Positions 16,571 to 62,453 of a stretch of DNA of 64,000 nucleotides are shown here, piece after piece (the stretch's first letter is position 1; each line of letters opens with the position of its first letter). This DNA comes from a virus (lineage: Duplodnaviria > Caudoviricetes), in IMG/VR virus record IMGVR_UViG_3300023047_000002. One strand, written 5' to 3'. Position numbers and translations under genes: made by a program. The notes below the pieces were generated by a model. That model saw nothing but the letters and a program-made list of their open reading frames with translations, was not told the origin of the DNA and searched no databases.

Positions 16571-16609
16571 ATTATGCACCACCACAAACCATTCATTGAT
16601 GAGGTGTCT

Positions 16610-18361
16610 ATGAGTAAAGATTGCCTAAGCATTTCAGTCCTGAAAAAGAATAATTCCGTTGTCCCATTTGACGGAGATAAAATAAAATCTGCGATACGTA
16701 AATCTGCTGAACGTGTGAATGTTACTATGACCACAGAACAGGAAGACTTCGTTGTTTCTTATGTTGAAAATCTTTGTCCTGTGAATGAGCCTGTACAGGT
16801 GAAGGCGTTGCATAATTATGTCGAGTGTGCCCTTGATTCAGTGAACACAGAAGTAGCACGCTCTTATCGTGAGTATCGCAATTACAAGACGCAGTTCGTT
16901 AAGATGCTTGATCAGGTATACCGAAAGAAGCTCGAACTTTCAGACAAGCGGGACGCATCGAATGCCAATGCCGATTCTGACCTTATTACAACTCAGAAAG
17001 CAATCGCATACGCTGAATTGAATGGCGAGCTTTACAAACGGTTCTTCCTGACGGACGAGGAAAACAAAGCACAGGAAGACGGGTATATTTACATCCATGA
17101 CAAAGGCGCAAGACTAGATACCACGAATTGTTTCAGTAGGAATACACGCTTTATCACGTCTGCTGGCATCCGTTCGTTCAATGACTTTGTTGACGGTGAC
17201 ACGGTGCAGGTGTTATCGCATCGCGGTCTGTGGCGTATTGGGACAGTTCATTGCTTTGGTGAGCAGGAGACTCAGATCGTCACGTTCGTAAATGAGGACA
17301 TGTCTGTAAGGCATACCGTTGAATGCACTCCCAACCATAGGTGGATACTCTCTGACAGTAGCATTACAACTGAGCTTAAAAAGGACGATGTCTTAGTCAA
17401 ATCACCATGCGACATAGAGGGCAGGATTACACAGTTTCGTGGCGTTGTTTGGACAGTAGAAGACATTGAGAAAACAGACAGAGTTGAACCCGTATGGTGT
17501 CTTACGGTGGATACGGATCATTCATTCGTTCTTGAATCAGGCATCCCGACTGGCAACTGTTGTTTGTTTGACATGAAATCCCTTTTGAAAGGCGGTTTTC
17601 GTATGGGCAACATAAGTTATCGTGAGCCGAAGACAGCCGGAACAGCATTGTCTCTTATCGCTGATATCGCATTGAATGCAGGTGCAAGTCAGTACGGTGG
17701 TTTCACAATATCGGAGATTGACAAACTGCTTGAGCCGTATGCACATGAATCATACGACCGTTATTATGCTGAGTATGTTGAACTTACTGGTAAAAAAGAT
17801 CCGATGGGTGCAACGATTTATGCGAATAAAAAGTTACGTCAAGAACTTGAAGATGGTGCGATTGCCATTGAATGTAAATGGAATTCATGTTCTACGGCTC
17901 GCGGCGATTATCCCTTCACGTCCATCTCGTTCGGTTTGTCAAGAGACCGTTTAGGTCAAATGGTGACATCGGCTTTTTTAAAGGTTCGTAAAGAAGGTGC
18001 TGGAACCTCTGACCATATTCCCGTTCTGTTCCCCAAACTGACGTTTCTTTATGACGAGGATATGCACGGAGCAGGTAAGGAACAGGAATGGCTTTTCAAG
18101 GAAGCCGTTGAATGCACACAAAGGGCGCAGTATCCTGATTTCCTCTCGATGACAGGCGACGGTTATGCACCTTCGATGTATAAGAAATATGGCGTGTCTA
18201 TTAGCCGTATGGGATGTAGAGCCAACCTGTCCCCGTGGTATGAGATGGGTGGTCAGGAACCCGCTGATGACTTGTATGAAATTGAATATGACGATGGTAC
18301 AAAGGAGATTGTTCAAAAAGGCTTCTTGATCGGTGATCAGAAAGTTGAAGATATGGTGTAG
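16610..18361 (+). CDS. nrdD: Anaerobic ribonucleoside-triphosphate reductase, N-terminal fragment (ATP cone, mini-intein)
   Basis: ATP cone (VVPFDGDKIKSAI), NANADS, YIYIHD, N|CCL, QYGG, FPKL, YPD, finger-loop MGCR; ends after GGQEPAD plus an acidic tail; start 16610 from GAGGT RBS. Confidence 0.93.
   Translation: MSKDCLSISVLKKNNSVVPFDGDKIKSAIRKSAERVNVTMTTEQEDFVVSYVENLCPVNEPVQVKALHNYVECALDSVNTEVARSYREYRNYKTQFVKMLDQVYRKKLELSDKRDASNANADSDLITTQKAIAYAELNGELYKRFFLTDEENKAQEDGYIYIHDKGARLDTTNCFSRNTRFITSAGIRSFNDFVDGDTVQVLSHRGLWRIGTVHCFGEQETQIVTFVNEDMSVRHTVECTPNHRWILSDSSITTELKKDDVLVKSPCDIEGRITQFRGVVWTVEDIEKTDRVEPVWCLTVDTDHSFVLESGIPTGNCCLFDMKSLLKGGFRMGNISYREPKTAGTALSLIADIALNAGASQYGGFTISEIDKLLEPYAHESYDRYYAEYVELTGKKDPMGATIYANKKLRQELEDGAIAIECKWNSCSTARGDYPFTSISFGLSRDRLGQMVTSAFLKVRKEGAGTSDHIPVLFPKLTFLYDEDMHGAGKEQEWLFKEAVECTQRAQYPDFLSMTGDGYAPSMYKKYGVSISRMGCRANLSPWYEMGGQEPADDLYEIEYDDGTKEIVQKGFLIGDQKVEDMV
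17129..17557 (+). mobile_element. Mini-intein in NrdD at the NCC motif (143 aa)
   Basis: DTTN|CFSRNT..CTPNHRW..VWCLTV..SGIPTGN|CCLFD. Confidence 0.9.
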
Positions 18362-18375
18362 TCGTGTTAAACTGC

Positions 18376-18456
18376 AAAAAGGGCTAGGTCGGCCAACCGA
18401 AAAGAAGCCTTATCCACTTCCTGCCCTTTTTCTCTGTGGATAGCGTGTTGAGGATA
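18376..18456 (+). promoter_or_regulatory. Structured RNA leader of the homing endonuclease gene (three-way junction plus possible pseudoknot)
   Basis: AAAAAGGGC/GCCCTTTTT closing stem, TCGG-ccaa-CCGA and GAAG-..-CTTC hairpins; loop TATCCA complementary to TGGATA (18437-42) and partly to the SD region GGATA. Confidence 0.5.
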
Positions 18457-18463
18457 GAGCACC

Positions 18464-20263
18464 ATGAAATCAAAAAAAGTGTATCCGGAGTGGTTTCTTG
18501 CGGAACTTGCGGATGAAGAAACCAGACATCGTTTTGAGAAAGGGGATTGTAAGGTCTCTGAGTGTGTATATTTCACATGTCCAAACGGTCATCCTGCGTA
18601 TAAGCAACTTGTTAAGAATCATATTACATCGTCAGGTACACCAAGGAATAAGTGTCCTGTATGTGCAAAGTTGAATCAAACCACGTTTGTTCCACCTGAT
18701 TGGGTTGTCGAGGACTTAGCGAATGAAACGGAGCGTGAAGCTCTTCGTGGAACTGCGTGCAATTCAAAATCGAAATTTTCTTTCGTCTGTAAGCAGTGTG
18801 GAACTGTTTACGAACAAACTATATGGAATCATTCTATCGGTAAGCGGGTATGTCATGCTTGTGCAAGTAAATGTAGAGGAAAATCTTACAGTGAGACAAT
18901 AGGACAAAGAAGAAAGCCTTATCCAGAATGGTTTGTGAATGAACTGGTTAATGACAGTGACAAAGAGAGGGCATTACGTGGCGATATTACCGGTACGGAA
19001 AATGTTACGTTCAGATGCCTTGCAGGTTTAGAGCATCCGAATTATGTTCAGACTGTTAAGAGTCATATATGTATTTCTACCGGGCATCCTAAAAACGGAT
19101 GCCCCGTGTGTAGGTATATCAAGTCATCAAAAGGCATATCTGAATTTTACAAGGGTGTTAGAAAGGAGTTTCCGCCTGAGCTTTATGACGAGGTTTATAA
19201 GGATGAGGACAGGGACAAACTGCGCAACCGACAGTTGTCATATAATGAGTCCATTGATTGGGTATGTCAGTCATGTGGTCGTGTTTACAGTCAGATGATT
19301 AAAGATCACATTCGTGGGAAACGTTGTAACTACTGTGCCGGTAAGATTTCCGATGAGGAGTGCATTCTAAGGGAAATGATCACTCCATATTACAACGGTG
19401 AAATTCTCTACAACACAAGGGATGGGTTTGACGGTTATGAGGTTGACATCTACATACCGGAATACAAGATAGCTATTGAGTATAATGGTTCCTTTTGGCA
19501 CAAATCGCTTCCGAGTGGCTTTGCATCCAGAGACCGTCTGTACCACCTTCACAAATTCGAGCTGTGCCAACGCAAAGGGATAAGGCTTTTAAGCATTTTT
19601 GACGTTGACCTGTTATTTAGGAAGGAAATCTTATCGAGGTTTTTTATGGACTTGTTTGTGCCTAAAAAGGTCTTGTATGCAAGAAAGTGCCGTGTGGAAT
19701 GTATTAGCTCCTCTATGGCTAATTCTATGTATGCACAGCATCATTTACTTGGAAGCACTCCAAATTTGTCCGTGTCTTATGGGTTGTTCCATGAGGGCGA
19801 ACTCGTGTCCTGTATGTCTTTTCAAAAGGGAAGGTATAAAGTTTCAGGTCATCCAGTGTGGTGTTTGACTCGGTTTGTCACGAAGTCCGGCATCTCTGTT
19901 ATTGGCGGAGCGTCAAAACTCTTGTGTCAGTTCGAGCAGGCATATAGTCCATCGTGTATAGTGTCTTACTCTGATAATGATTTCTTTCAAGGTGGCGTAT
20001 ATGAGAAACTTGGATTCACTTGCCTCGGCGTTACAAAGACACCAAGGTATTACTGGTTTTTGCATGGTTTGGAATATAGCCGGGAACAGTGTCAGCTTAA
20101 AAATTTATCTAAAAATTACCCTGATTTGTTTGAGGAAGCAAAGAGTATACATGGGAATAAAGAAGACTTTATTATGCTTAGATTAGGTGCATTTAAAGTC
20201 TTTCGTTCGGGGCATACAAAGTGGGTTAAACACTATGAGGGAGAAATTTATGAAAAAGGTTAA
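18464..20263 (+). CDS. Free-standing homing endonuclease: four Zn-ribbon repeats, Vsr-like PD-(D/E)XK domain, C-terminal GNAT-like domain
   Basis: Four repeats starting YPEWF/PPDW/YPEWF/FPPE, each with Cys pairs; EVDIYIPEYKIAIEYNGSFWH; YARKC..GGASKLL..SYSD..YEKLGF; sits between the nrdD halves. Confidence 0.85.
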   Translation: MKSKKVYPEWFLAELADEETRHRFEKGDCKVSECVYFTCPNGHPAYKQLVKNHITSSGTPRNKCPVCAKLNQTTFVPPDWVVEDLANETEREALRGTACNSKSKFSFVCKQCGTVYEQTIWNHSIGKRVCHACASKCRGKSYSETIGQRRKPYPEWFVNELVNDSDKERALRGDITGTENVTFRCLAGLEHPNYVQTVKSHICISTGHPKNGCPVCRYIKSSKGISEFYKGVRKEFPPELYDEVYKDEDRDKLRNRQLSYNESIDWVCQSCGRVYSQMIKDHIRGKRCNYCAGKISDEECILREMITPYYNGEILYNTRDGFDGYEVDIYIPEYKIAIEYNGSFWHKSLPSGFASRDRLYHLHKFELCQRKGIRLLSIFDVDLLFRKEILSRFFMDLFVPKKVLYARKCRVECISSSMANSMYAQHHLLGSTPNLSVSYGLFHEGELVSCMSFQKGRYKVSGHPVWCLTRFVTKSGISVIGGASKLLCQFEQAYSPSCIVSYSDNDFFQGGVYEKLGFTCLGVTKTPRYYWFLHGLEYSREQCQLKNLSKNYPDLFEEAKSIHGNKEDFIMLRLGAFKVFRSGHTKWVKHYEGEIYEKG

Positions 20264-21188
20264 AGCGGTAAGAAAGTTCGCGGATAACCCTGTTTACGAA
20301 GGGAGACTTAATTGTGGCGCGATTTCACTTAATTTCCCGATGATTGTGAAAAAAGCACAGGATGAGGGCAATGATTTCTATGAGGTTTTGACATATTACC
20401 TTGACCTGTGCCGTAAAATCCATATCCGAACATTGGAATACCTTGCACATAAAAAGGCTGGCATCAATCCGTTAGGTTTCTGCGAGGGCGGTTTCTATGG
20501 CGGTCACTTCAAAGAGAATGAGGAAATCGGTCGTGAGTTTTTCAGACCTATGACGGTTTCATTCGGCATCGCCGCCTTGAATGAAGCAACGGTGATGTAC
20601 AAGGGTAAATCGTTATATGAAGATAAAGCGCAGTTTGCCGAAGAAGTTTTGCGTTTTATTAACGATTACGCAAATAAATACAAAAAAGAGGACGGAATCC
20701 TGTATGCGATTTATGGTACGCCCGGAGAGTCGATGTGCTCATTACAGGTAGAGCAGTTCCGAAAGAAGTATGGCATGATTAAGGGAGTGTCAGACCGTAA
20801 GTATATGTCCAATTCTTTCCATGTTCATGTTTCTGAGGATATCACGCCTGTGGATAAGATGGATACAGAGTACAAATGCTTCCATTTGTGCAACGGTGGT
20901 AACATCATCTACAACAGATTCGGATCTGATTATAACACAAAAGCCTACGTGACGCTTATTCGGGAAGCAATGAAACGTGGGTATTATTACGGGTGCAACA
21001 TCAGCAAGAATTACTGCTGTACATGTGGAGCAGAGTTTTTGGATGAAGACAAGTGCCCGTCCTGTGGAAGTGATGATTTGGTTCGTATTTCAAGGGTGTG
21101 TGGATACCTTGGCCTTGAACGTGTGCACGGCGACACCCGAATGAACGGAGGCAAACGTGCTGAAATAGACGACAGAAAGTGCATGTGA
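20250..21188 (+). CDS. nrdD: Anaerobic ribonucleoside-triphosphate reductase, C-terminal fragment
   Basis: EGRLNCGAISLN, YGTPGES, SNSFH, NGGNI, Zn CxxC..CPSCG, glycyl-radical RVCGYLG; own GAGGGAG RBS overlapping the endonuclease stop. Confidence 0.93.
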   Translation: MKKVKAVRKFADNPVYEGRLNCGAISLNFPMIVKKAQDEGNDFYEVLTYYLDLCRKIHIRTLEYLAHKKAGINPLGFCEGGFYGGHFKENEEIGREFFRPMTVSFGIAALNEATVMYKGKSLYEDKAQFAEEVLRFINDYANKYKKEDGILYAIYGTPGESMCSLQVEQFRKKYGMIKGVSDRKYMSNSFHVHVSEDITPVDKMDTEYKCFHLCNGGNIIYNRFGSDYNTKAYVTLIREAMKRGYYYGCNISKNYCCTCGAEFLDEDKCPSCGSDDLVRISRVCGYLGLERVHGDTRMNGGKRAEIDDRKCM

Positions 21189-27476: not shown

Positions 27477-27510
27477 AAAACCCACGGGCTTTATCGGGTG
27501 GGTAGTTGAC
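27477..27510 (+). mobile_element. IS200/IS605-type end remnant (single hairpin plus GTAGTTGAC)
   Basis: AAAACCCACGGGCTTTATCGGGTGGGTAGTTGAC. Confidence 0.65.
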
Positions 27511-30047: not shown

Positions 30048-30319
30048 AGGAAACCCACGGTCTTTAGCCTGTGGGAGGAATGCGAAAAATCTCGCTTGTT
30101 AAATGATGCCTAGTATTTAAGTGTCTGAGATAAAACCGTTCTGTACTTTGACTGAAGGCACACTCTAAAATTTAAACACCAATAACTTTGTTTACGTAGT
30201 CATGGAACATGTTCCATGACTACACCCCACAATGTAACGATAAAAGGTAGAATATTTAATCACTTGCATAACTATTTATCAGCTATAAGTCCACCGACAT
30301 TAGGCGGTTGCTAGTTGAC
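30048..30319 (+). mobile_element. Non-autonomous IS200/IS605-type miniature element (left hairpin, degenerate right end)
   Basis: AGGAAACCCACGGTCTTTAGCCTGTGGGAGG ... AAGTCCACCGACATTAGGCGGTTGCTAGTTGAC; internal palindrome GTAGTCATGGAACATGTTCCATGACTAC. Confidence 0.55.
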
Positions 30320-46947: not shown

Positions 46948-47109
46948 TATATGGATGAGGTGTACCAAAGTTATACGACTTTGCGTACACCGTTATTGCT
47001 CCTTGAACATATTGAATACTTTGTTACTTTAGTTTTCACCAAAAACCGAGCCAACCCATTTAGAGATTGGTAGTTTAACTCATTGCATAACGTATCCATG
47101 AGGTTCACC

Positions 47110-47692: not shown

Positions 47693-47745
47693 GTCAACTA
47701 CCCATCGGTGAACTACCCACTGCCTTTAGGCAGTGGGTAGTTCAC
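47693..47745. mobile_element. Symmetric palindrome of IS200/IS605-type right ends
   Basis: GTGAACTACCCACTGCCT-tt-AGGCAGTGGGTAGTTCAC preceded by a partial GTCAACTACCCA; between convergent genes. Confidence 0.7.
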
Positions 47746-50813: not shown

Positions 50814-52910
50814 CTAAACTGCTTTCAGATGCTTATGACCTGTGTCTGTACCAGTAACTACCGTCAACCTTAAAGGTATGTTGCTTTGTGCGTTGTCCAT
50901 AAACATCGTCATACTGTTATCGTAAACAACCGCTCGTTTTATCCTTGGTACATACATATCGCCACCCATATACGTGTCGTTAAACAATGCAGCCATGTTG
51001 TCCATAAATACAGACCAAGGTCTGTAAACAATTTCAGTAGGCTCGGTTATTGTTGTTAAGCGACCTGCAGGATGAGACTGAAATCCTGGTGTGTACATTC
51101 CTGGGATAGAGACGTTCATACCGCTAGACGCAGGGTAATACTTGTTAAGGTCGTTTTCTGACCAGACCTCAATAACAAATGTGTGTTTGGTCAGATTGTC
51201 AATACCGAAGTCGTTGGCTTCAGTTGATGTTCGCTCGATGCGATAATAACGTGGATTTGTTTCTGTCCCAACATTCACGAATTTCACAAGGGTTCCGCCT
51301 CTTGTCTTGTATTCTGCCATTGTGGCGTTTTTTACAAATATGTATGGAGTCCATATTTTATCCCATCCACAATTTTCATAAATACCAGTTGATGCGTTTA
51401 CAGTCATGTCCATCGCTACGGATACCGGTTTCGTTATCTGTTTCATGTCATTCGCTGTAAGGGAACCGATTATTGTTTCTTTCGTTTCACATAATGCGTG
51501 CGTTAGTGAATTCCTTGGATGTCCGTTAAACAGATAATGAAGAGATACATTTGAGAATGCTGCGATAAGGAGTAAGTAAACGTCAGCACTCAGTGTGTGC
51601 ACTATCTTTGTTTTGTACCGTCTTGCGATATCATACGCAGAACGTCTGCACATTAAACGGTCTTTGAAGAACACACAGTTGTTGAACAATTCTGTAAAGA
51701 TGACGTTCTCACTTTCGGATTTAAGACTCGGATGAAACGTATGATGCACGTACAAGAAGTTTCTCGTTAAACTGCTTAGCTTGCTTATCTTGTACTTCTT
51801 AATCCCTTTCGTTAAATGCTTTCCTGAGATAGATATGTAAGGTTCTTGCTTGTGCATCTTATGTTGAGTGAACCGCATATATACTTCTTCTACACCTTCT
51901 TTTGGAGTCATCACATGGCTTTTTAATTTCCATACAGTCAGCTTGAAATGTTGCTTGTCAACTGACAAGCACTCACGTCTAAAGCCAGCACCACCAAAGA
52001 AATAATCCATGTCCGAAATATTGTCCAAGAATGGCAGCATAATGTCATTATTCTGCCTTGAAGGTCTTTCTGATGATTCAAGCAACCATTCCATTCCATC
52101 GGAATCAATGGAGTAATATTTCCACCACACCTTGTTTGAATTTGTATCGTTGTATGCGTATTCAAACACACGTCCACAATCCCATTCGTACTTCGTTCCC
52201 TGAGTAACGTCTTTCGTTGATATGCTTTGCAGGTCTTTTGAGTCCTTCGGGTAAATCGTCGTCTTAAGGTTCAGTCTAAACGAGTCATCATCAAGAATGC
52301 CGTTTCTATACACAGGGTCGAACTGTATTGACACATCTGCAAAAGACGTAACCGTACCTACGAGAATCGTTATGTATGGACGCGGCAAACCTCGATAGTT
52401 TATTACGTCTTTAATTTCGCCATCAGTTCCATTTGTGCGAACAACAAGATCTCCTGTTCCTGCACCATAGACGAGGTCGCGATTTTCAGTACTTATTGTG
52501 TACCCTATAAGAGTTAGCGGAGCATCTGTGTCTATGCGGTACGTTGGCACAGGAGCTCCACCTGTATTGCTAATACTCTCAGTCGTATCAATTTGTATTT
52601 TAGCCATGTCCATCTGATACACGGCACGTAAGTACGATTTCTTGCTAGTCTCAGAAATCATTTTTACGAGTTCGCGTGGAATTGTATTCAGGTCAATGAC
52701 GCATTTCCTGTCCGTAGCATAAGATGAAAATGCACCGTATTTCCATTTGAATCCTACCTGTCTGTGTCTGTGCCATCCACACCATGATTTCAGGACAAAC
52801 ACTTGTCCCCAAACAGCATCCAATAAAGACACAAGTTTTGAGTAAAATACGTTCGCCGCATCGTCAATGAGCGGCATCATCAATTCTTCGAGGGTGATCT
52901 TCTTAGCCAT
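50814..52910 (-). CDS. Putative virion/baseplate protein
   Basis: 698-aa beta-rich ORF in a structural operon. Confidence 0.5.
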   Translation of the reverse strand: MAKKITLEELMMPLIDDAANVFYSKLVSLLDAVWGQVFVLKSWCGWHRHRQVGFKWKYGAFSSYATDRKCVIDLNTIPRELVKMISETSKKSYLRAVYQMDMAKIQIDTTESISNTGGAPVPTYRIDTDAPLTLIGYTISTENRDLVYGAGTGDLVVRTNGTDGEIKDVINYRGLPRPYITILVGTVTSFADVSIQFDPVYRNGILDDDSFRLNLKTTIYPKDSKDLQSISTKDVTQGTKYEWDCGRVFEYAYNDTNSNKVWWKYYSIDSDGMEWLLESSERPSRQNNDIMLPFLDNISDMDYFFGGAGFRRECLSVDKQHFKLTVWKLKSHVMTPKEGVEEVYMRFTQHKMHKQEPYISISGKHLTKGIKKYKISKLSSLTRNFLYVHHTFHPSLKSESENVIFTELFNNCVFFKDRLMCRRSAYDIARRYKTKIVHTLSADVYLLLIAAFSNVSLHYLFNGHPRNSLTHALCETKETIIGSLTANDMKQITKPVSVAMDMTVNASTGIYENCGWDKIWTPYIFVKNATMAEYKTRGGTLVKFVNVGTETNPRYYRIERTSTEANDFGIDNLTKHTFVIEVWSENDLNKYYPASSGMNVSIPGMYTPGFQSHPAGRLTTITEPTEIVYRPWSVFMDNMAALFNDTYMGGDMYVPRIKRAVVYDNSMTMFMDNAQSNIPLRLTVVTGTDTGHKHLKAV

Positions 52911-52925
52911 CTGTCAATCCCTCCT

Positions 52926-54740
52926 CTAGAACCCAATAATATACCCATAGCGATCAATCTGATTAGGAACTCTCTCAGCAGACACAAGATAATCGTTCAT
53001 TATGAATTCAAGATTGTCTTGTTTAATTACGTTTGCGGAAGCCTCTGATGGCACTGCCTGACCCACATCAAATACATAGTCTTCTGAACGCAAAACATCT
53101 GCATTAAATGCTTTATCTTTCATGTGATACACACAAATTTGCTTGATGACAAAAGCACGGTCAACTTCTGGCAATTTAGACACGCTGAAAGGATTCAGGT
53201 TCGCTCGTACAATAACGTATGTCGGAAACATGTCATCAGATGCAAGACGCCAGTAACGTCCACCATACAAGAATGTATCAGCTTCTTCTTTTTCAGCTTC
53301 ACATACAAGTTCCGCACTTCCCTTAACCATTGTCAGGAAACCAAATGCGTTGTACCAACGGCTTAGACACCAACGATGTCTACGTCTCTGGAATGCTTTA
53401 AACTCTTCAATGTCTGACACTTCAGGGACTGCAACTTCTTCACTGTACTCAATACCTGTCGAGGTTGTTGTTCGTTTTTCGTAAAATGTTCCGTTGATTT
53501 CGTACAAAGGTTTTGCATTTCCGTCCGAAGTGTCGTTCAAATCGTCCAGATAACTTACCGGGAAAATCGGATAGTTGCGGTCACGTTCCATGTCCGTAAG
53601 AGGCATCGGGTATGGTGCACCGCTAAGGTCAAATCCATTGAGGTATCTTGAAGCGTCAAGGTCTTCATACTCAGAACCGTATTCTGTCTTCTTCGATGTT
53701 GTACCACCTGTACTACCGGATGATTCTGTAATCGTCGTAGGCTTGTTTCTCTTGTCGTTTGAACGTGCACGAACCAAATCCGTCAGTACAAGGAATGGCT
53801 GTGCTTTCTGTGCATTGTATCTAGCTTGTTTCCTGTCATATAGTTCTTCAGGAGTCCAGTCTTCATACACGGTATCATATACAGGCAATCCATCTGCATC
53901 AATAACGATGTTACCGAGTGCGTCCAAACGAGCAACCTTTTTAGGTGTTCCGTCTTCGTTTAAAACAACACGTTTGCTTCCTGGTTTTTCATTAAGTCTT
54001 GGATCTTCCTGTGATGACACTGTTGTCCACTGAATCAAACCATGACGCAACCCAGATAAGTCAATACAGAAACCTTTTTCCGTATTGTCGTCTTCGGTTA
54101 ATGACGCAGAACGTGTTGCCGGTATTTCGTCCGTATTGCCATCTTCTTTGCCATTAGTCAGGTAGTAATCTCGAAATACGATTGCATAAGCACCTGCATC
54201 ATAATTGTCATGATATGCTTTCAGTATGGCACGTGCGGAAACACGTGTATCATCACTTACGTACAACGGGTCACGTGTACTATCGTAGGCAAAGTAAATC
54301 TCAGCTTTTCCGTCAGGGTTTAGCTGCATACACATCGGATGTTCAGAAAGATATGTCGATGATGCCTCCGTTCTGTTTGTCGTTAAAATCATCATCACAG
54401 GCAGTGTATATGTGAACTTCGGAATTTCAATCCAGTCGCCATCTTCAGTTCCCCATGAGGTAACAGGAACCTCCACCATACAGCCACATCCACATGGACA
54501 AGGTCTGTACTTAGGATGTACAGATTCGGAAGGAACCGTAATGTCTTCATCTGTTGAAGCATCATCATGATTCTGTTTACTGTTCTGACGGTCATTGCAT
54601 GGTGGTGCTTTTGGCATTTCAAGAGTTGTCCATGCTTTTCCACCTGTACCGAATGCAAACCACAATCCACCACCGCTGTTACAGAACTTCTTAAACTCAC
54701 GTGCTTTTACGTAACGACCATAATCCGTGAAAATTCCCAT
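52926..54740 (-). CDS. Putative baseplate wedge protein
   Basis: N-terminal GR...A..F...LWFAFG...W....P..P pattern; start 54740 from GGAGA RBS. Confidence 0.5.
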   Translation of the reverse strand: MGIFTDYGRYVKAREFKKFCNSGGGLWFAFGTGGKAWTTLEMPKAPPCNDRQNSKQNHDDASTDEDITVPSESVHPKYRPCPCGCGCMVEVPVTSWGTEDGDWIEIPKFTYTLPVMMILTTNRTEASSTYLSEHPMCMQLNPDGKAEIYFAYDSTRDPLYVSDDTRVSARAILKAYHDNYDAGAYAIVFRDYYLTNGKEDGNTDEIPATRSASLTEDDNTEKGFCIDLSGLRHGLIQWTTVSSQEDPRLNEKPGSKRVVLNEDGTPKKVARLDALGNIVIDADGLPVYDTVYEDWTPEELYDRKQARYNAQKAQPFLVLTDLVRARSNDKRNKPTTITESSGSTGGTTSKKTEYGSEYEDLDASRYLNGFDLSGAPYPMPLTDMERDRNYPIFPVSYLDDLNDTSDGNAKPLYEINGTFYEKRTTTSTGIEYSEEVAVPEVSDIEEFKAFQRRRHRWCLSRWYNAFGFLTMVKGSAELVCEAEKEEADTFLYGGRYWRLASDDMFPTYVIVRANLNPFSVSKLPEVDRAFVIKQICVYHMKDKAFNADVLRSEDYVFDVGQAVPSEASANVIKQDNLEFIMNDYLVSAERVPNQIDRYGYIIGF

Positions 54741-54780
54741 GTGTTGTCTCCATGTTATACGGTCAACCACCGTTATTACA

Positions 54781-54815
54781 GAACTAAACGCACAGATTGT
54801 TTGTGCGTTTAGTTC
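54781..54815. terminator. Perfect 14-bp hairpin downstream (minus strand) of the CRISPR array
   Basis: GAACTAAACGCACA-gattgtt-TGTGCGTTTAGTTC. Confidence 0.6.
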
Positions 54816-54961
54816 GATAAGATGCTAATTCGTTGAAGACATGACTATTGAGTTGTGAACGATTGAACAAATCTACTACACCATTGAGATTGGAGCTGTT
54901 GAAATTGGGAGCGAATACCAATGCTACTGGATTTACTGATGCCCTTGCCTTTTGTCGAGAA

Positions 54962-55129
54962 GTTTGACCATCCTTTGAATTTGCACACCTCTCAAACTTA
55001 CAGAGATTCCGATAAGGATTTCTCGTAGTTTGACCATCCTTTGAATTTGCACACCTCTCAAACCTCTCGGTGACTATGGAATGATTCGCCGATGTTTGAC
55101 CATCCTTTGAATTTGCACACCTCTCAAAC
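54962..55129 (-). CRISPR. Cas-less CRISPR mini-array, type II-like (3 x 36-bp identical repeats, 2 x 30-bp spacers)
   Basis: Repeats at 54962-54997, 55028-55063 and 55094-55129; minus-strand repeat GTTTGAGAGGTGTGCAAATTCAAAGGATGGTCAAAC; spacers (+ strand) TTACAGAGATTCCGATAAGGATTTCTCGTA and CTCTCGGTGACTATGGAATGATTCGCCGAT. Confidence 0.93.
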
Positions 55130-55131
55130 CT

Positions 55132-56187
55132 TTAAATTTGAAAGTTGATTAAAGTAAGTTCTGTCACATTAGACAACATTTTATTACATTGTGAAATCCA
55201 TTTTCTTGTCTCTGCGGAATCATCTTCGGCTTGTTCATAAATGTTAATTATTTCCTTAAACTGGGTTATGACTTCTTTAGGGAATTCCCTGTAACCTACA
55301 TCATACATTTCTATGAAATTATTAAAATATTGTCTACATACATCAAGAATGTATTCAAGAGGACTGTTTGAGGCATCAATATCTGCATATGCTGATTCAT
55401 AAGCACACAATTTTAATCGGTTAAACATTCTTGACGAGTTGTTACGCTTGTATTGCGTATGTTGTTCAGCTAAGTGGTCAAGAGCAAGACGTTTGAAGTC
55501 TTCATAATTTTGAATATCAGTATCTCTAAAGTCTACAATCATTCTTTTTTTAATCTTTGTAAACATATCATCATTCCCAAATCCAAACAAGACTTTACGT
55601 AATCGCCTTTTACCAGATTCGAGTTCTGGAGCATTAAAATCACGTTTATAATGAATTTTGTCGTCCTCTTTTTCGAGAATACGTGAAGCAGTACATCCGA
55701 TTATGTGGTGCACATACAAATTTGGTATTACATCGCCTCCATTTCGTGCAAAATAATGCTCAATGGCATCACTGACCTCTGCAAAACAATTCAAGTTTTT
55801 ATACTCAATCTGAGCTTTGCAAAGTTCCTCAACTGCTTTCTTATGGAATGAAAATGAGGGATCACCACCAATATAACGTAATCCGACAATCGTTTTATTA
55901 CTGTTGTAACCAGCCATAGCAACAACTGTTTCAGCAGAAACAATACGTTCAGTTGAAACAATCCGGACAAGAGACGTAGTCTCCGGTGTGAATCCTGTAT
56001 TATGTCCACCTTTTATGTTGTATGACAAATCAACGATCTCTGATAATCGTGAATACAATTCTGGTATAGATGCACATGCATAGTCAAGAATATACCCAAC
56101 ATCAGAATCCTTTTCTCTGAGTATTTTATCAGGATCAACTGATTCTGTCATAGGTCGCTTTCGTCTGTTCTTTATGATCAATGCCAT
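55132..56187 (-). CDS. AT-rich hypothetical protein directly upstream of the CRISPR array
   Basis: 351 aa; GAGGT RBS; MALIIKNRRKRPMTES N-terminus; SY..KGG and FAEVSDAIEHYF motifs; no RuvC, HNH or HEPN motif seen. Confidence 0.75.
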   Translation of the reverse strand: MALIIKNRRKRPMTESVDPDKILREKDSDVGYILDYACASIPELYSRLSEIVDLSYNIKGGHNTGFTPETTSLVRIVSTERIVSAETVVAMAGYNSNKTIVGLRYIGGDPSFSFHKKAVEELCKAQIEYKNLNCFAEVSDAIEHYFARNGGDVIPNLYVHHIIGCTASRILEKEDDKIHYKRDFNAPELESGKRRLRKVLFGFGNDDMFTKIKKRMIVDFRDTDIQNYEDFKRLALDHLAEQHTQYKRNNSSRMFNRLKLCAYESAYADIDASNSPLEYILDVCRQYFNNFIEMYDVGYREFPKEVITQFKEIINIYEQAEDDSAETRKWISQCNKMLSNVTELTLINFQI

Positions 56188-56256
56188 ATCTCTACCTCAC
56201 TTGGTTTGAGTTGTCTATTTCGATGGCGACAACCATTGTCGCCATCACCACACGCT

Positions 56257-56297
56257 CTTATAGCACACTCTTTCGGACAGATTCTCAAACAGCACCA
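56257..56297 (-). promoter_or_regulatory. TGGTGCT-box promoter for the 351-aa gene and CRISPR array
   Basis: Minus strand TGGTGCT-N28-TATAAG with TG extension, followed by the perfect hairpin 56222-56246. Confidence 0.7.
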
Positions 56298-56444
56298 TGA
56301 ATGTCAAACAATAACTAGGTACTCGATTTTGAAGTCATCAATTCCTTTGGTATTGGCGCGGTTCGCCACTTCCTTTGTCAGAGGACTTTGCGTACACCGT
56401 GGGGATTGAGGGGACAAATTTTTGTTTTCTGTTTTCAACATGAC

Positions 56445-56668
56445 GCGAGCAGGAATCCCACGCGGCTTTAGCCCGTGGGTAAGGCGAGCAATCTTGTTGT
56501 TGTTGAATTCGATTTGTTGTTGTGGTACAAGGTTTTCAATTCCTACGGAACATAGGAATACAATGCAAGTGGAGAACAAGACCTCTGGCAAGTCTTCAAC
56601 TAAGAAGAAAGATAAGTCTCGTTCGTTGAAACTTGAAGCCCACCGCCTAAAGGCGGTGGGTAGTTGAC
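56445..56668 (+). mobile_element. 224-bp non-autonomous IS200/IS605 (tnpB-type) miniature element
   Basis: Left hairpin GGAATCCCACGCGGCTTTAGCCCGTGGG; right end GAAGCCCACCGCCTAAAGGCGGTGGGTAGTTGAC; no tnpA or tnpB inside. Confidence 0.8.
56503..56531 (+). promoter_or_regulatory. Sigma70-like promoter inside the miniature element
   Basis: TTGAAT-N17-TACAAG with TGn extension. Confidence 0.5.
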
Positions 56669-56688
56669 TTATCAACTTTACGTACACC
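56540..56688 (+). ncRNA. Putative TnpB omegaRNA (reRNA) scaffold plus about 20-nt guide
   Basis: TTCCTA-cggaaca-TAGGAA hairpin, GCAAGTGGAGA, AAGAC..GTCTT stem, TCGTTGAAACTTGAAG (CAAG/CTTG pairing), right-end hairpin; guide TTATCAACTTTACGTACACC. Confidence 0.65.
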
Positions 56689-56765
56689 GTGATGAAAGCG
56701 GTTGGTTATTGTGAACCACCTCTTCATATTTCTGTTATCAACTTTACATACACCGTGAATGACAA

Positions 56766-57248
56766 ATGGGACTTTTTACATCGCTTTTACCAACTGAATC
56801 AGAACGGAATCTTCAAATCGGATTTATCGATGAAGGAATGCGACTGTATGGAATTGAAGCCGTACTCATTGATGTAGATTCCGTGTCATTCTATTCAGAC
56901 AATCACAAGTTGTCAGGACGTGAAAAACACATACACGTGTTGTTTCAAGACCACCCGAATAGGAGACTATTAGCAAATCTCCAATTCAATCACATTGAAC
57001 GAAACGAACCTGCAATAATCGTGTTTATTCCGTTCCAGTTTGGTGGCGTACATCTCGACATAGTTAAAGATCAGGTTCTCGTTATCGGAGAAGATAATTG
57101 GGTCATAAAAGCCGTGAACTGCACATACTTCACGGGACTTTGGTACGTATGCCATGTCGTTCCGTTTATGATGGAAGAAGACAGACCAAGAGATCAATCC
57201 AGACATAAATCTCAATTCTTCAATCCAGGTGAAGTTGAGTTCGAATGA
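56766..57248 (+). CDS. Putative neck / head-completion protein (T4 gp14-like)
   Basis: FIDEGMRLYGIEAVLI N-terminal pattern; beta-barrel-like composition. Confidence 0.45.
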   Translation: MGLFTSLLPTESERNLQIGFIDEGMRLYGIEAVLIDVDSVSFYSDNHKLSGREKHIHVLFQDHPNRRLLANLQFNHIERNEPAIIVFIPFQFGGVHLDIVKDQVLVIGEDNWVIKAVNCTYFTGLWYVCHVVPFMMEEDRPRDQSRHKSQFFNPGEVEFE

Positions 57249-57277
57249 CCCGTCTCACACACTCAAACAGAAAGTGC

Positions 57278-57389
57278 TCAAATTTGACATGTACTAAAAA
57301 GTTACGACCTTACCCTGGTAAGTACTAGGGTAAAATAAAAAATCGCGTAGAACGCAAACTAGAGGCATTCTACGCGATTTCCATTTTCA
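57278..57389. repeat. About 112-bp dispersed intergenic repeat, copy B
   Basis: Matches 23481-23593; contains inverted repeats TACCCT.GTA/TACTAGGGTA and AAATCGCGTAGAA/TTCTACGCGATTT. Confidence 0.85.
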
Positions 57390-57409
57390 CTCTGTTAAAT
57401 TAGTGTACA

Positions 57410-58897
57410 TCACTCTGCATTGATTATGCGAAGTTCACCGTTTAATGTTACATCAGGGTCGGTCTCTAATGAATTTATTTGTTCCATCGTTAAATCGGTT
57501 GGATAGATAATTTCTCCTGTTACTGGATCAAGAGCTTCCTCTACAAAGTCTTTTGCACTTTGGAGGTCGCTATAAGGTCCGTTAAAGAATGTGGACACTG
57601 CTCTAATATCGTTTATAGCGTTCATCTTGGTTTCTTCAAACAGCACTATTCTGTAAGGAGGTTTATTCTCATCAAGCTCTGTCTTTTTAACAAATTTCCA
57701 TGCGGTTGGTGAATCGCCAAGTGTCTCATTCACAGTGCGTAAAGCCTCTTCAATACCATCAAATTCTTCTTCGTGAATAACTTCAGGATAATCCACACGC
57801 AATCCTGACATAATTGTTTTACTGTGTTGATTCACATAGTCTGTAATATCAGACAAACTCATTTCTCCGTAAGCGTCACCTCTGTGTTGTGCTACTGCGG
57901 ACATCGACTTTGAAACACCGAGTAATGCATTGGCAAGTATTAAAGTGTATTCATCAGGTTCAGTTGCATCGCCACTTGGGTCATCAGGTTCAGTTACATC
58001 GCCACTCGGGTCATCGGTCACACGTACAATTTCCTCAGTGTTCATAACACGATAATATTCCTCGCCGAATTTCATGTCCAGGGTAACAATTTCTTCCTCA
58101 CCATTGTTGACGATTGCGGCATCTCTAGGTTCTTGCAACAATTCGCCTTTTAAGAACTCACCAACAATTCCGTCAGCTCCTACGTAAGGGGGTTCTTCTT
58201 GTTCATAGACGCTTCCAATGAGAATGTCTGTTCCGTCAACATCAACAAGGAAGTAATAATGATCATCGTCTGAGAGATAAGTAGCTTTAAAGTCTTCATC
58301 AGTTAATATTTTTAATGCGGGCCATACTTTGTCTGTCTCTGGTGTTCCGCCGTAAGGGTCTTGTTGTATTTGATCCTCAGTGTAAATAAAGGCACCTCTC
58401 AAGAACTCAGGTACTTCAGACAGTTTTTGTCCACCGATGGATTCAAAGTAATTATCCCAATCAAACGAAGCAACACCCTCTTCTTCAAGATTGCAATGCC
58501 AGACGTATGGAGCATCCTCACTTTGTGACATCGCAACAAGATGTTTCTTTCCACCCGCTTCAACTATTTTACCATAACGATAAGGAACGCGAACGTATGT
58601 CACACCGTTTATGACTCTTTTATGCGTGGATGTAAGATTCTGCTGTTTGTCCATGCTCACGATGGTTTGTTGGCCTTTCTCTGATACGATGGTTACATTA
58701 AAAGGCGTAGATACGGCATTTGAAATTTTATGACCGGGGTAATTTCCGATTGACGCTGATGTAACTTCTTGTAAGTCACTAATACCTTCCTGTAAGTTAG
58801 CGTCATACTCAACGGTAGTTGTTACCTGAGCTTGAAGATCTGAATCACTAAATGATTTTTCATACCTATCAATCAAAATAGCTGTTCTGTAACTCAT
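57410..58897 (-). CDS. Acidic hypothetical protein, probably virion-associated
   Basis: GAGGT RBS; 30-bp tandem duplication at 57951-58015 (DDPSGDxTEP x2). Confidence 0.6.
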   Translation of the reverse strand: MSYRTAILIDRYEKSFSDSDLQAQVTTTVEYDANLQEGISDLQEVTSASIGNYPGHKISNAVSTPFNVTIVSEKGQQTIVSMDKQQNLTSTHKRVINGVTYVRVPYRYGKIVEAGGKKHLVAMSQSEDAPYVWHCNLEEEGVASFDWDNYFESIGGQKLSEVPEFLRGAFIYTEDQIQQDPYGGTPETDKVWPALKILTDEDFKATYLSDDDHYYFLVDVDGTDILIGSVYEQEEPPYVGADGIVGEFLKGELLQEPRDAAIVNNGEEEIVTLDMKFGEEYYRVMNTEEIVRVTDDPSGDVTEPDDPSGDATEPDEYTLILANALLGVSKSMSAVAQHRGDAYGEMSLSDITDYVNQHSKTIMSGLRVDYPEVIHEEEFDGIEEALRTVNETLGDSPTAWKFVKKTELDENKPPYRIVLFEETKMNAINDIRAVSTFFNGPYSDLQSAKDFVEEALDPVTGEIIYPTDLTMEQINSLETDPDVTLNGELRIINAE

Positions 58898-58985
58898 AAA
58901 GTACCTCACTATTTGCCCCTAGAAACTTACTATGATTTATAGGATTCACTTCATATCACCCTATTTTAGTGTAGATATAGTTGCA

Positions 58986-59023
58986 CTTGAAGCTCACCCG
59001 CTTTAGAGTGTGGTATAATTTAC
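58986..59023 (+). promoter_or_regulatory. Extended -10 promoter for the RNA ligase operon, overlapping a possible decayed IS end
   Basis: TGTGGTATAAT within CTTGAAGCTCACCCGCTTTAGAGTGTGGTATAATTTAC. Confidence 0.55.
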
Positions 59024-59039
59024 ACAACGGAGGTTTTTA

Positions 59040-60215
59040 ATGCTAAACCACAAAACTAAGGAACGGGAACTCGCATACGTAGTCCGAATTTCTGAAACAA
59101 GAGAGCTGATTGGATATGACAATGTACACTATATTAAAGTTCTTGGATGGTGGTGTGTCGCACAAAAATCCATGCAGGCAGGAGACCTGGCAGTCTATTT
59201 CGAGATTGATTCTGTACTTCCACGTGACGACCATCGTTTTGCTTTCATGGACAAACGAAATTATCGTGTACGCACACAGAAAATGTGCAGAACGGTCTCT
59301 CAAGGTCTTGCTTTGCCGCTTACGTCTTTTACAGAATTAAAGCACTGTAAAGAAGGTGACTTTGTTACGAAACAGCTTCGTGTTACTTTGTTTGAGGAAT
59401 CAATACAGGAACAACAGCAGAAGACAAAATCTGACGGGTGGTCAAACGCACAGGACATGCATAAAAAGTTTTTCAGAAATCCAATCGTAAAATACCTTAT
59501 GCGTTACAGTGCGGTGCGTTGTGTTCTGAAAAAGCTCTTCATAAAGAAAAAAGACAAAATAAAATGGCCTGAGTGGTTGCCGCGTACAGGAAGCGAACGT
59601 GTTCAGAACATTCCTGTCTTGTTTGAAAATCCTGACGTGAAATGGGTTGCCAGTGAAAAAGTTGACGGAATGAGTTCAAGCTATGTGCTTGACGAAAAAG
59701 GAACTTACCTTGTGTGTTCCCATAATGTCATTGTGTTTTCAAACAAAGTGAAAGGTTCTGAAAAGGTTGCAAACTGTAATGCGTACATAAAGAAGAACGT
59801 ATGGATGCTCATGTCTGAGAAGTACGACATGAGACACAAACTCGAACTGTTGAAATCTAAGTTCAATGCAAAAACAGTTGCCATCCAGGGAGAAATCTAC
59901 GGTGACCGTGTTCAAAAGAGAACTTACGGTCTTAAGAACAAACAGGACTTGGCTGTGTTCCACATTTGGATTAACGGAACACGTCTCAGCATGAAAGATA
60001 CTCAACCTTTATGCTCCGAACTTGGTCTTCAAATGGTGCATGTTTTCGATTGGGAACTTCATGTCCCATCAACGGTTGAGGAGCTTATCTGTAAGATTGA
60101 CAGTGAACATTCTGCCCTTGATGATGGGATGATAGAGGGGTATGTTCTTTATTCGCAGGACGGGCTTATCAATTATAAGTGTGTTTCACCTTCGTATTTG
60201 CTGAAATACCATTGA
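59040..60215 (+). CDS. RNA ligase, Rnl2/DRB0094 family
   Basis: RELAYVV..W.CV..GDLAVYFEIDS..SQGL; motif I EKVDG, QGE, EGYV, KCVS..YL. Confidence 0.9.
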   Translation: MLNHKTKERELAYVVRISETRELIGYDNVHYIKVLGWWCVAQKSMQAGDLAVYFEIDSVLPRDDHRFAFMDKRNYRVRTQKMCRTVSQGLALPLTSFTELKHCKEGDFVTKQLRVTLFEESIQEQQQKTKSDGWSNAQDMHKKFFRNPIVKYLMRYSAVRCVLKKLFIKKKDKIKWPEWLPRTGSERVQNIPVLFENPDVKWVASEKVDGMSSSYVLDEKGTYLVCSHNVIVFSNKVKGSEKVANCNAYIKKNVWMLMSEKYDMRHKLELLKSKFNAKTVAIQGEIYGDRVQKRTYGLKNKQDLAVFHIWINGTRLSMKDTQPLCSELGLQMVHVFDWELHVPSTVEELICKIDSEHSALDDGMIEGYVLYSQDGLINYKCVSPSYLLKYH

Positions 60216-60236
60216 CAATTTCAAAGGAGTTTCGTT

Positions 60237-60635
60237 ATGGCTATTAAAACTCACACAAAAAAGAATGAACGCATTTCTTCAGATGACCTTGAACTAGCTT
60301 ATGCACTTGATGATGTGTGTAGGAAGCAAGCAGAGTTCGGAATGGACCGCGTTAGTATGCTGCGTAAAAGTCTGAAAGCCATCGAACGTGGTGCGAACGA
60401 CCTCGGATGCTCAATGTACCTTCAGATAACTGACAATGGTGCTCGATATGCGAAACAAACAGTTGAGGAGTTTTTGTTGAAAGCTAAGAACTTCTTTCTT
60501 GATGATGATACATTCCTCGAAGTTACGTTCATTGACGGAGAACCTGGTAATCAGTTCATGCTGACGTTTAACGATTTCGACGGAAACTGTGAAGAATGTG
60601 CTGAGTTCATTTTCATTCCTAATGACGAAGACTGA
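60237..60635 (+). CDS. Hypothetical protein with MAIK N-terminus
   Basis: 132 aa; AAGGAG RBS. Confidence 0.6.
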   Translation: MAIKTHTKKNERISSDDLELAYALDDVCRKQAEFGMDRVSMLRKSLKAIERGANDLGCSMYLQITDNGARYAKQTVEEFLLKAKNFFLDDDTFLEVTFIDGEPGNQFMLTFNDFDGNCEECAEFIFIPNDED

Positions 60636-61147
60636 TGTCCGAATACAGAAAACAATTGAGCAGTCAGGAACGATGGGATGCATTTTTCATGTCCATCGCA
60701 CTTGTTACTTCTTTGAAAAGCAAAGACATTAACACGAAAGTCGGTGCTGTGCTTGTCGATGGAGACAATCACATTGTCGGAACCGGGTATAATGGATTTC
60801 CAAAAGGTGTGGATGACGAACAACTTCCTTCAGGAAGAGAAGGTGTGTGGCTTGGCACCAAATACCCATACGTCGTCCACGCAGAACTTAACTGCATCCT
60901 CAATTCCATTGTGTCTGTGAAGGGCTGTACGCTGTACTGTACGTTGTACCCTTGCAATGAATGTGCAAAAGCAATCATCCAATCAGGGATTAAACGTGTC
61001 GTGTACCTTCTGGACAAACACCATGACGATGTTGCTTACGTTGCTTCAAGACGACTGTTCGACATGACAGGCACGGAACTTTGTAAAATGAATGAAGAAG
61101 CAGTGAGTGGATTTCTGCGTATGAGTGAACTTCATCCTTTCTTGTAA
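60635..61147 (+). CDS. dCMP deaminase
   Basis: SKD..TKVGA, GYNG, HAELN, PCNECAK. Confidence 0.95.
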   Translation: MSEYRKQLSSQERWDAFFMSIALVTSLKSKDINTKVGAVLVDGDNHIVGTGYNGFPKGVDDEQLPSGREGVWLGTKYPYVVHAELNCILNSIVSVKGCTLYCTLYPCNECAKAIIQSGIKRVVYLLDKHHDDVAYVASRRLFDMTGTELCKMNEEAVSGFLRMSELHPFL

Positions 61148-61155
61148 GAAAATAG

Positions 61156-61195
61156 TGGTGCTGTACATCCTTTGAACTCTTGTATGTGGTATAAG
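61156..61195 (+). promoter_or_regulatory. TGGTGCT-box promoter
   Basis: TGGTGCT-N27-TATAAG with TGTGG extension; leader hairpin GTCACGAG/CTCGTGAC. Confidence 0.75.
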
Positions 61196-61260
61196 CACTT
61201 TTGTCACGAGGGTTAGGGCATGGACTCATTACGAGTTCGGCTCTCGTGACATAACTCAAC

Positions 61261-62217
61261 ATGAATCATAAGGAGATTAGAGGTATGTGCAAAATCACTC
61301 TTACAAGCAGTTCACTCAATTCTTTTTGTTCCTGTCGTCGTCAGTATGACTACAAAATCAACAAGCACATTTCGCCTGTTGAAATGCCAAAAAGCTATGA
61401 CAATGCTGTTGCACTGTCTAAAGCAGTAACGTCATTAGCTGAAAGTTTCAATTACGAATTGCCTTTCGAGGACGCGATTGCACGAGGTGTTGAAATCATC
61501 TCTACCTATGGACTTGACGAAGCAGGAAGTGCTCAGGTTGAAGCGGCTTTCAGAGCGTATTCAGCACGGTATTACAACGTCGATAACGACAAATGGCAGG
61601 TCGTTGAATCATCTGTGAATGCCTGTGTGGAAGTTCCTTTGTCACCTAACGTCGTTTATCGCACGTATCTTGATTACGTAGCGTACAAAGACCAAGGTAA
61701 GTATTTCCTAGTCGTCAACAAGTCTTCATCCACGTCGATAACGGATGACTTTTTAACAAAGTTCTTTATCGACAATGATGTCCGTATGCAGGTGATCGCT
61801 GCACAGCAGTTACTCGGTGTAGAAATTACTGGCGTCATAATCAACACAATGACAAGACCACAACACAAAATACGTGTCGGAGAAACTGATGCTGAGTATG
61901 CCGAACGTAATGCTACACGTAAAGGAAAAGCTGAACTGAAACGTAAAGTTGGTGAAACTCGTGACGAGTACATTCAACGCATGGTCGATGACTACCCCAA
62001 AGAATCTTTGCGTAAATTCTTCATCACGTTTAATGATGCACAGCTCAACACAGCTGTGTCGAATATCTTAGCAATTGCTTCGGATATCATGTCATGCAAG
62101 ACTTTTTACCCCAACACATGTGAATGCTCTAAGTACGGAAAATGCCCTTACATGAACTTGTGTAAATTTGACGGCGAGTTAAGTAAATGCTCCGACAGTT
62201 ACGAAGTTAAGATGTGA
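61261..62217 (+). CDS. Cas4/RecB-like PD-(D/E)XK-fold protein with Fe-S cysteines and altered active site
   Basis: LTSSSLNSF..C.R, YLD..LVVNK, Q..., C-terminal CxxYGKCPYxxLC. Confidence 0.7.
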   Translation: MNHKEIRGMCKITLTSSSLNSFCSCRRQYDYKINKHISPVEMPKSYDNAVALSKAVTSLAESFNYELPFEDAIARGVEIISTYGLDEAGSAQVEAAFRAYSARYYNVDNDKWQVVESSVNACVEVPLSPNVVYRTYLDYVAYKDQGKYFLVVNKSSSTSITDDFLTKFFIDNDVRMQVIAAQQLLGVEITGVIINTMTRPQHKIRVGETDAEYAERNATRKGKAELKRKVGETRDEYIQRMVDDYPKESLRKFFITFNDAQLNTAVSNILAIASDIMSCKTFYPNTCECSKYGKCPYMNLCKFDGELSKCSDSYEVKM

Positions 62218-62409: not shown

Positions 62410-62453
62410 GCGAGCGGGAAATCCCACGCGGCTTTAGCCCGTGGGTAGTTCAC
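62410..62453 (+). mobile_element. Minimal fused left/right-end IS200/IS605-type element (44 bp)
   Basis: GCGAGCGGGAAATCCCACGCGGCTTTAGCCCGTGGG, nearly identical to the left end at 56445, joined directly to TAGTTCAC. Confidence 0.75.

Follow-up and report, generated by a model that had tools for sequence, protein, structure and literature searches.

A protein-less IS200/IS605 derivative carrying a TnpB omegaRNA scaffold in a large gut phage, probably an idle PATE-like relic

Protein-less elements that often encode omegaRNAs needing TnpB in trans have been described for bacteria under the name of PATEs (Meers et al. 2023, PMC10055086), so that the kind of element analyzed here is already known. 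Like the PATEs of Geobacillus stearothermophilus (PMC10055086), it possesses both transposon ends and no protein gene; unlike them, it resides in a large gut phage, has its left-end promoter fused to the scaffold, and shows apparently mosaic ends, a right-end cleavage site that is mismatched, and a TAM differing from that of its cognate family. Homing between co-infecting phages is listed as a mode in a 2026 review (PMC13565253). Further points of comparison are provided by IS608 of Helicobacter pylori, the model for Y1 TnpA, with which the element shares hairpins in a subterminal position, 4-nt guides that precede the foot of each hairpin and are meant to pair with the cleavage tetranucleotide, and insertion 3' of the target without duplication; in contrast to IS608, it lacks tnpA and tnpB, and its right-end pair is mismatched. 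The left-end pair of the element, GAAT/TCAA, is identical to the right-end pair of IS608. As in the omegaRNA (reRNA) of ISDra2 and the IS605 family, the scaffold extends over the tnpB 3' end and the right end, and the predicted guide comes from the 3' flank, but the sequence family of this scaffold has no Rfam model. The TldR-associated guide RNAs of Wiegand et al. (2024) reportedly combine a guide RNA descended from TnpB systems with a nuclease-dead partner and a promoter target. The RNA predicted here is likewise of TnpB descent and its target could be a promoter; unlike in the TldR case, no dead-nuclease partner was found in the window, and the coincidence between guide and target is explained by the insertion site. 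Finally, the element resembles the Cas-less CRISPR mini-arrays of phages in being protein-free and dependent on an effector from elsewhere, but belongs to a different RNA class and has a different origin.

The window, that is, the whole 64,000-nucleotide stretch of DNA analyzed, is part of a phage genome with genes for PolA (with an intein), NrdD, a helicase and an RNA ligase; at the DNA level, none of the public phage records matched the window, the element or the locus. The closest relative is a 138-kb IMG/VR record, G001, in which the corresponding locus (L001) is syntenic with window positions 52828-54849 and 56669-61317 at 82-93% identity. The element is located in a 578-bp divergent intergenic space (Table 1). 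When 56439-56668 is excised in silico, the resulting junction is colinear with L001 except for point differences, so that L001 represents a precise empty site without target duplication, an allele of the kind that the first-pass annotation had proposed to seek in related phages. Together with the left-end guide/target rule considered below, this empty site sets the size of the element at 230 bp; the annotation had given 224 bp, and had correctly recognized IS200/IS605-type hairpins at both ends. The right-end boundary is exact: two of the TnpB insertions of G001 (L009 and L010) occupy sites that are empty in the window, and the comparison places the boundary directly after the right-end tail. 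The only open reading frames inside the element are a remnant of the tnpB frame and an antisense frame, neither of which has a Pfam or PHROG match; with both IS200/IS605 ends and no protein-coding gene, the element has the makeup of a PATE. All of the features listed in the first-pass annotation exist, the promoter coordinates being approximate, and the hairpins, the 24-mer, the scaffold fold and the homology to TnpB ISs are not due to chance.

Table 1. Coordinates of the element, its parts, and related features of the window
Feature	Position	Strand	Remarks
Protein-less IS200/IS605 derivative (PATE-like)	56439-56668	+	230 bp; removal gives a junction colinear with L001
TCAA target tetranucleotide	56435-56438	+	TAM position directly 5' of the element; pairs with GAAT by the IS608 rule
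Left end	56439-56497	+	Guide GAAT 56453-56456; hairpin 56457-56479; conserved 3' block 56474-56491
Left-end promoter remnant	56503-56531	+	-35 TTGAAT 56503-56508; 17-nt spacer; TG; -10-like TACAAG 56526-56531
Deletion junction	56527-56532	.	Left-end homology stops, tnpB-3' homology starts; ~1.3 kb of tnpB gone
tnpB 3' remnant = omegaRNA scaffold + right end	56533-56668	+	90-92% identical to L145-L149
Scaffold stem 1	56539-56545/56553-56559	+	From alignment with six TnpB-linked copies
Scaffold long-range helix	56566-56570/56631-56635	+	From alignment with six TnpB-linked copies; inner helices also present
Scaffold motifs	56565-56575 (GCAAGTGGAGA); 56626-56637 (TGAAACTTGAAG)	+	As listed in the first-pass annotation
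Right-end hairpin	56638-56661	+	Core 56639-56660; tail 56662-56668
Right-end cleavage tetranucleotide TGAC	56665-56668	+	G at 56666 where 6/6 cognate copies have C (TCAC)
Predicted guide portion (3' flank)	56669-56688	+	By position only; also first copy of the promoter-like motif
Second 24-mer copy	56735-56758	+	One mismatch to 56669-56692 (position 14); 8 nt before the 160-aa gene; conserved in L001
Third local copy of 17-nt core	56385-56401	+	33 nt upstream of the TCAA target site
351-aa gene	55132-56187	-	Left neighbor of the intergenic space
160-aa gene	56766-57248	+	Right neighbor of the intergenic space
Cas-less CRISPR mini-array	54962-55129		Three 36-nt repeats, two 30-nt spacers; 1.3 kb from the element
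Degenerate T8-type omegaRNA/right-end relic	58920-59023	+	Model R1, 24.6 bits, E 2e-5; absent from L001
Single fused hairpin element	62411-62453	+	Left-end 5' part + right-end tail; hairpin identical to 56457-56479

Both termini of the element contain subterminal imperfect hairpins that are homologous to the ends of tnpA/tnpB-bearing elements. The left end is 81-94% identical to the left ends of TnpB ISs in related phages, 88-96% identical to those of the cognate family described below, and 88% identical, over 50 nt, to that of an autonomous TnpA+TnpB IS605 in the related phage G003; 28 more viral loci, collected as relatives of one TnpB, and several others have left ends within the same 81-94% range. 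The DNA upstream of one of the TnpB genes of G001 matches window positions 56445-56492, and the 3' end of the same gene together with the downstream DNA contains scaffold motifs like those of the window, the terminal hairpin and then GGTAGTTCAC. A scan of IMG/VR with a 17-position degenerate pattern (15 specified bases) yielded mostly chance matches and four real ones.

By the IS608 rule, the tetranucleotide flanking an element can be predicted from the four bases that precede the foot of its left hairpin, and this rule fits all the left ends that were read except for the T9-type, where it holds at three of the four positions. The guide AAAG is accompanied by the target TTAC in the cognate family, CAAA and CAAG by TGAT and TGAC in the T8-type elements, GAAA by TCAT in the T10-type elements and the autonomous IS605 of G003, and AAAT by TTAA in three other elements. 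The window element conforms at its left end, with insertion 3' of the paired TCAA; the colinear position in L001 reads TCAG. At the right end, the guide GAAG (56634-56637) predicts TCAC but the window has TGAC, such that the combination AAAG/TTAC on the left and GAAG/TCAC on the right in the cognates is replaced by GAAT/TCAA and GAAG/TGAC, respectively. The outer parts of the element, namely, the 5' half of the left end and the right-end tail TAGTTGAC, are T10-like whereas the interior is of the cognate-family type, from which we infer that outer ends and interior have different IS subfamilies as their source. The likely cause is recombination inside the hairpins that these subfamilies have in common, and the mosaic origin of the ends would account for the mismatch between GAAG and TGAC. 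Judging by the IS608 rule, the TGAC change probably makes clean excision of the element by a Y1 TnpA no longer possible. No Y1 TnpA is encoded in G001; G003 encodes one, next to a similar left end. Such hairpin-mediated mosaicism would uncouple the transposase code, the TnpB TAM and the guide from one another.

The interior of the element could be traced to a specific family of TnpB ISs. When the translation of the leftover frame (56503-56664) was compared to longer proteins, it matched the C-termini of more than 50 TnpBs of 430-464 aa that contain the PF01385 and PF07282 domains and come from gut metagenomes. The search for the cognate full-length IS and its TAM that the first-pass annotation had suggested thus led to a family of which the full-length copies are inserted after TTTAC, a TAM deduced from three insertion flanks; the TnpBs of this family are 26-28% identical, at the protein level, to the T8 and T9 TnpBs of the related phage. 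The T8-type relatives sit after TTGAT, the TAM of ISDra2. Five loci of the cognate family were compared with window 56533-56668, and the terminal ~137-148 nt of their ISs show 83-92% identity to it, with four of the five at 90-92% (E down to about 1e-50). At one locus (L149, 1501-4294), two cognate-family TnpB ISs are arranged tail to tail, and the first has lost part of its left end to what looks like the right-end tail of another element, suggesting a nested insertion.

Alignment with six TnpB-linked cognate copies indicates that all helices of the scaffold are kept in the window, the mismatch at the loop end of stem 1 being the normal state in the cognate family. The 134-nt scaffold region (56535-56668) has a fold z-score of -4.7 and the same architecture as the TnpB-linked RNAs. 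The 3' regions linked to TnpB have three modules in common, seen both in the T8-type alignment and in a broader set: a first stem with a GGAAC loop, a covarying 4-5-bp long-range helix, and a terminal hairpin. Across the wider omegaRNA family, 98% of the cells are paired and 7 of the 11 pairs show double changes, compared with 25-42% pairing in slid controls. The window state in the long-range helix is A-U/A-U, and the CAAG/CTTG pair, noted in the first-pass annotation as a potential compensatory change, is a real variant of this covarying helix. The covariance-model search envisaged there also located the scaffold: model R2, built from TnpB-linked cores only, with the window excluded, has its best and sole convincing match in the window at 56544-56642 (25.4 bits, E 9e-4). 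Model R1, derived from the T8-type, aligns only with the terminal hairpin of the element, and Rfam contains no matching omegaRNA family (the best-scoring family was HEARO, on the wrong strand and with 16 bits where the cut-off is 83). The predicted RNA is thus encoded over the tnpB 3' end and the right end and has the secondary structure of the family; the cognate TnpB, the other component expected of an omegaRNA system, is encoded neither in the window nor in five related phage records (G001-G005).

The left ends of the cognate family contain a conserved TTGMAA-N17-TATCTA promoter with a TG extension. The promoter remnant of the window is positionally homologous to the TTGMAA-N17-TATCTA/TATTTT promoters of full-length ISs and retains the -35 element together with the spacer, the TG and, of the -10 element, only the two initial bases, after which the homology jumps to the tnpB 3' end. 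The TTGAAT-N17-TACAAG site reported in the first-pass annotation is therefore present, but not as an intact promoter: it is an IS left-end promoter cut by the deletion inside the -10 element and, as judged from its sequence, is weaker than the original. A consensus promoter scan did not call this site in the window. The loss of tnpB with the RNA scaffold kept, as the annotation had proposed, corresponds to an internal deletion of ~1.3 kb that joins the left end to the tnpB 3' remnant, and the anatomy it described (left end, promoter remnant, omegaRNA scaffold and right end, without tnpB) is correct.

We consider it probable that the element, a non-autonomous, PATE-like derivative of an IS608-like transposon, is now immobilized and persists as an idle relic among many IS-end relics. 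The internal deletion removed tnpB from a member of the family of ISs with 430-464-aa TnpBs and placed the left end and most of the promoter straight onto an intact omegaRNA scaffold and right end; the element is inserted 3' of the TCAA that pairs with GAAT, without target duplication, inside a tandem phage promoter-like region. An RNA, if made, would start at the left-end promoter in its weakened form or arise through transcription that continues from the motif at 56385, these being the only promoter candidates seen, and would after processing be expected to consist of about 130 nt of scaffold and a guide of 16-20 nt; its scaffold would be the right one for a cognate-family TnpB supplied in trans. 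The relic interpretation is favored because clean excision is improbable and no valid, TAM-flanked target for the guide was seen at the element's own locus. Two considerations point in the opposite direction: the scaffold is undecayed relative to the TnpB-linked copies and the -35 element, the spacing and the TG are kept, which could reflect selection for expression, and similar tnpB-less cassettes recur in other phages, which suggests a propagating or useful design. Whatever its present activity, the locus allows a clean dissection, with the cognate full-length family, the empty site and the deletion junction at hand, of the decay of a TnpB IS into a promoter-plus-guide-RNA mini-element in a phage.

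The foremost alternative, unlikely in our assessment but with a real chance of being correct, is that the element is a functional guide cassette whose expressed omegaRNA, with a TnpB from elsewhere in the phage or the host, cleaves alleles without the element, either at the donor joint or in co-infecting relatives, and so drives the retention or spread of the element and the adjacent variable island, a form of transposon homing between phages. The idea is already in the literature (PMC10055086; PMC13565253). The intact scaffold, 90-92% identical to TnpB-linked ones, and the promoter remnant directly upstream are consistent with such a role, as are the recurrence of orphan omegaRNA elements in related phages and the location of the element, which borders a 1.6-kb island exchanged between the window and L001. 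The boundary of this island, however, is equally well explained by recombination at a common promoter-like motif, and the -10 element is damaged. Moreover, the TAM position of the window element reads TTCAA as opposed to TTTAC in the cognates, so the donor joint does not carry the cognate TAM, and the L001 allele combines TCAG with three mismatches to the guide (positions 8, 12 and 13).

The partner nuclease, too, was not found. Neither a TnpB nor a TldR candidate is encoded within the 64-kb window, and the five related phage records G001-G005 contain no TnpB of the cognate family. Searches of IMG/VR with the translated remnant, and of species genomes and IMG/VR with a member of the cognate family (P0007), gave no match, both being sensitive to close relatives only. 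TnpB genes are common in cultured phages, and G001 has three (T8, T9 and T10); these were considered as cognates and rejected, the T8- and T9-type scaffolds being distantly similar to that of the element and the T10-type scaffold not. Function in trans is therefore possible but disfavored for the window copy, given the TAM mismatch, the right-end mismatch and the failure to find a partner nuclease, and both action in trans and a TldR-like role are speculation. If such cassettes proved to be expressed and used in trans, they would be intermediate between the guide RNAs of transposons and guide arrays that stand alone.

The island in question covers window positions 54850-56426, exchanged for 2025-3890 in L001; it contains the mini-array and the 351-aa gene in the window and two unrelated genes in L001. 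No link was found between the mini-array and the element, and a search of 56188-56700 for a tracrRNA or anti-repeat of the array returned no match longer than 7-8 nt. The 351-aa protein was considered as an effector and rejected since its homologs occur in ordinary gene contexts without array or element; the gene, which lies between the two in the window, is found elsewhere without either.

A broader version of the trans-acting scheme, which we regard as quite improbable, is that phages maintain a protein-free library of guides made up of orphan promoter-omegaRNA cassettes: several tnpB-less cassettes in this phage and in relatives such as G003 and G004 would carry conserved promoter motifs as guides, and one or a few TnpBs acting in trans would cut or silence co-infecting relatives or move accessory islands by co-conversion. 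If true, this would amount to a CRISPR-array-like, multi-guide use of TnpB. Elements with a left end, promoter, omegaRNA and right end but without tnpB are present in L134 (two), L135 and L137; counted by phage, there are two in G004 and two in G003. The two in L134 (1499-1647 and 2395-2705), from G004, are inserted in a phage tRNA gene cluster; G004 is a complete 78-kb phage whose sole TnpB is of a different type from these omegaRNA elements. The orphan element in L135 (~1345-1660), from G003, has the same ~11-nt sequence on both sides, which is unexpected because IS200/IS605 elements make no target duplication.

The potential guide itself is best read as a copy of a phage promoter-like motif. 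The first-pass annotation had interpreted the flank 56669-56692 as a guide that recurs 66 bp downstream. The recurrence is genuine, with one mismatch, and the full 20-mer 56669-56688 recurs only at 56735; the notion of a designed target did not withstand comparison with L001, where both 24-mer copies exist without the element, and the second copy is preceded by TTCTG, neither TCAA nor TTTAC. The coincidence of guide and repeat is thus explained by the element having landed in a tandem motif. The 17-nt core of the 24-mer has four plus-strand copies in the window against 0.14 expected. Genes closely follow it at window 46978 and inside the L001 version of the island; in L130, copies of it occur on either side of the 351-aa gene. 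We suspect that the motif is a phage-specific promoter that probably doubles as a recombination point for cassette exchange. Sites of the 17-24-nt motif (46978-46994, 56385-56401, 56675-56691 and 56741-56757 in the window; 3200-3216 in L001; 558 and 1718 in L130) lie directly upstream of genes, always in the orientation of the gene, and in L130 flank the cassette with the 351-aa gene.

These observations bear on the possibility that the RNA has been exapted for regulation, with a nuclease-dead or TAM-relaxed TnpB or a TldR-like protein binding the tandem motif in front of the 160-aa gene, or other copies, and tuning transcription. Several genes are indeed preceded by the conserved motif of which the guide is the first copy, and the second copy, which differs at one position, lies right next to the start of the 160-aa gene. 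Nevertheless, we deem this very improbable: both copies are already there in the element-free relative, so that the insertion site suffices to explain the coincidence, the second copy lacks a flank resembling a TAM, the other copies of the motif mismatch the TAM-proximal seed, and the window contains no TldR or TnpB candidate. Least credible of all is that the locus is not an RNA element but encodes a small protein (an 81-aa TTG ORF, 56422-56667, or a 34-aa ORF, 56565-56667) or uses its hairpins as terminators or REP-like structures, because the open frame, despite its GAGG-type ribosome-binding site (56408-56414), is the leftover tnpB frame, with a translation that matches TnpB C-termini and lacks Pfam and PHROG matches, and the hairpins, despite the occurrence of their family at gene ends elsewhere in the window, are devoid of U-tracts and directly homologous to IS ends. 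Plain terminators were dropped as a candidate once both ends had been matched to TnpB ISs.

The relic interpretation preferred here places the element among other IS debris in the same genome. Hairpins of this type (CCCAC stem, 6-16-nt spacer, GTGGG) occur six times in the window, always in intergenic positions, against 0.29 expected. Solo IS-end hairpins are located at gene ends (62411-62453, 47716-47745, 27481-27510 and 30054-30075), and convergent genes enclose the one at 47716, which forms a perfect 17-bp palindrome. The degenerate T8-type relic lies between a 499-aa gene and the RNA ligase gene; mutation has given its right-end tail a TGGTATAAT-like sequence, located 17 nt ahead of the start of the ligase gene, and by virtue of this sequence and position the tail may now serve as the -10 element of that gene. 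Positions ~1722 and ~11111 of the window are the empty sites for the T9- and T10-type TnpB insertions, respectively, that G001 carries; at the T10 site, TCAT is directly followed by the right-end flank, and the 30 nt upstream differ between the phages. Elsewhere in the window, PolA (4456-9816) contains an intein and LAGLIDADG segments, and NrdD (16574-21188) is split by an HNH endonuclease gene, with an Rfam int-alpA match at 18377-18445 (40.4 bits).
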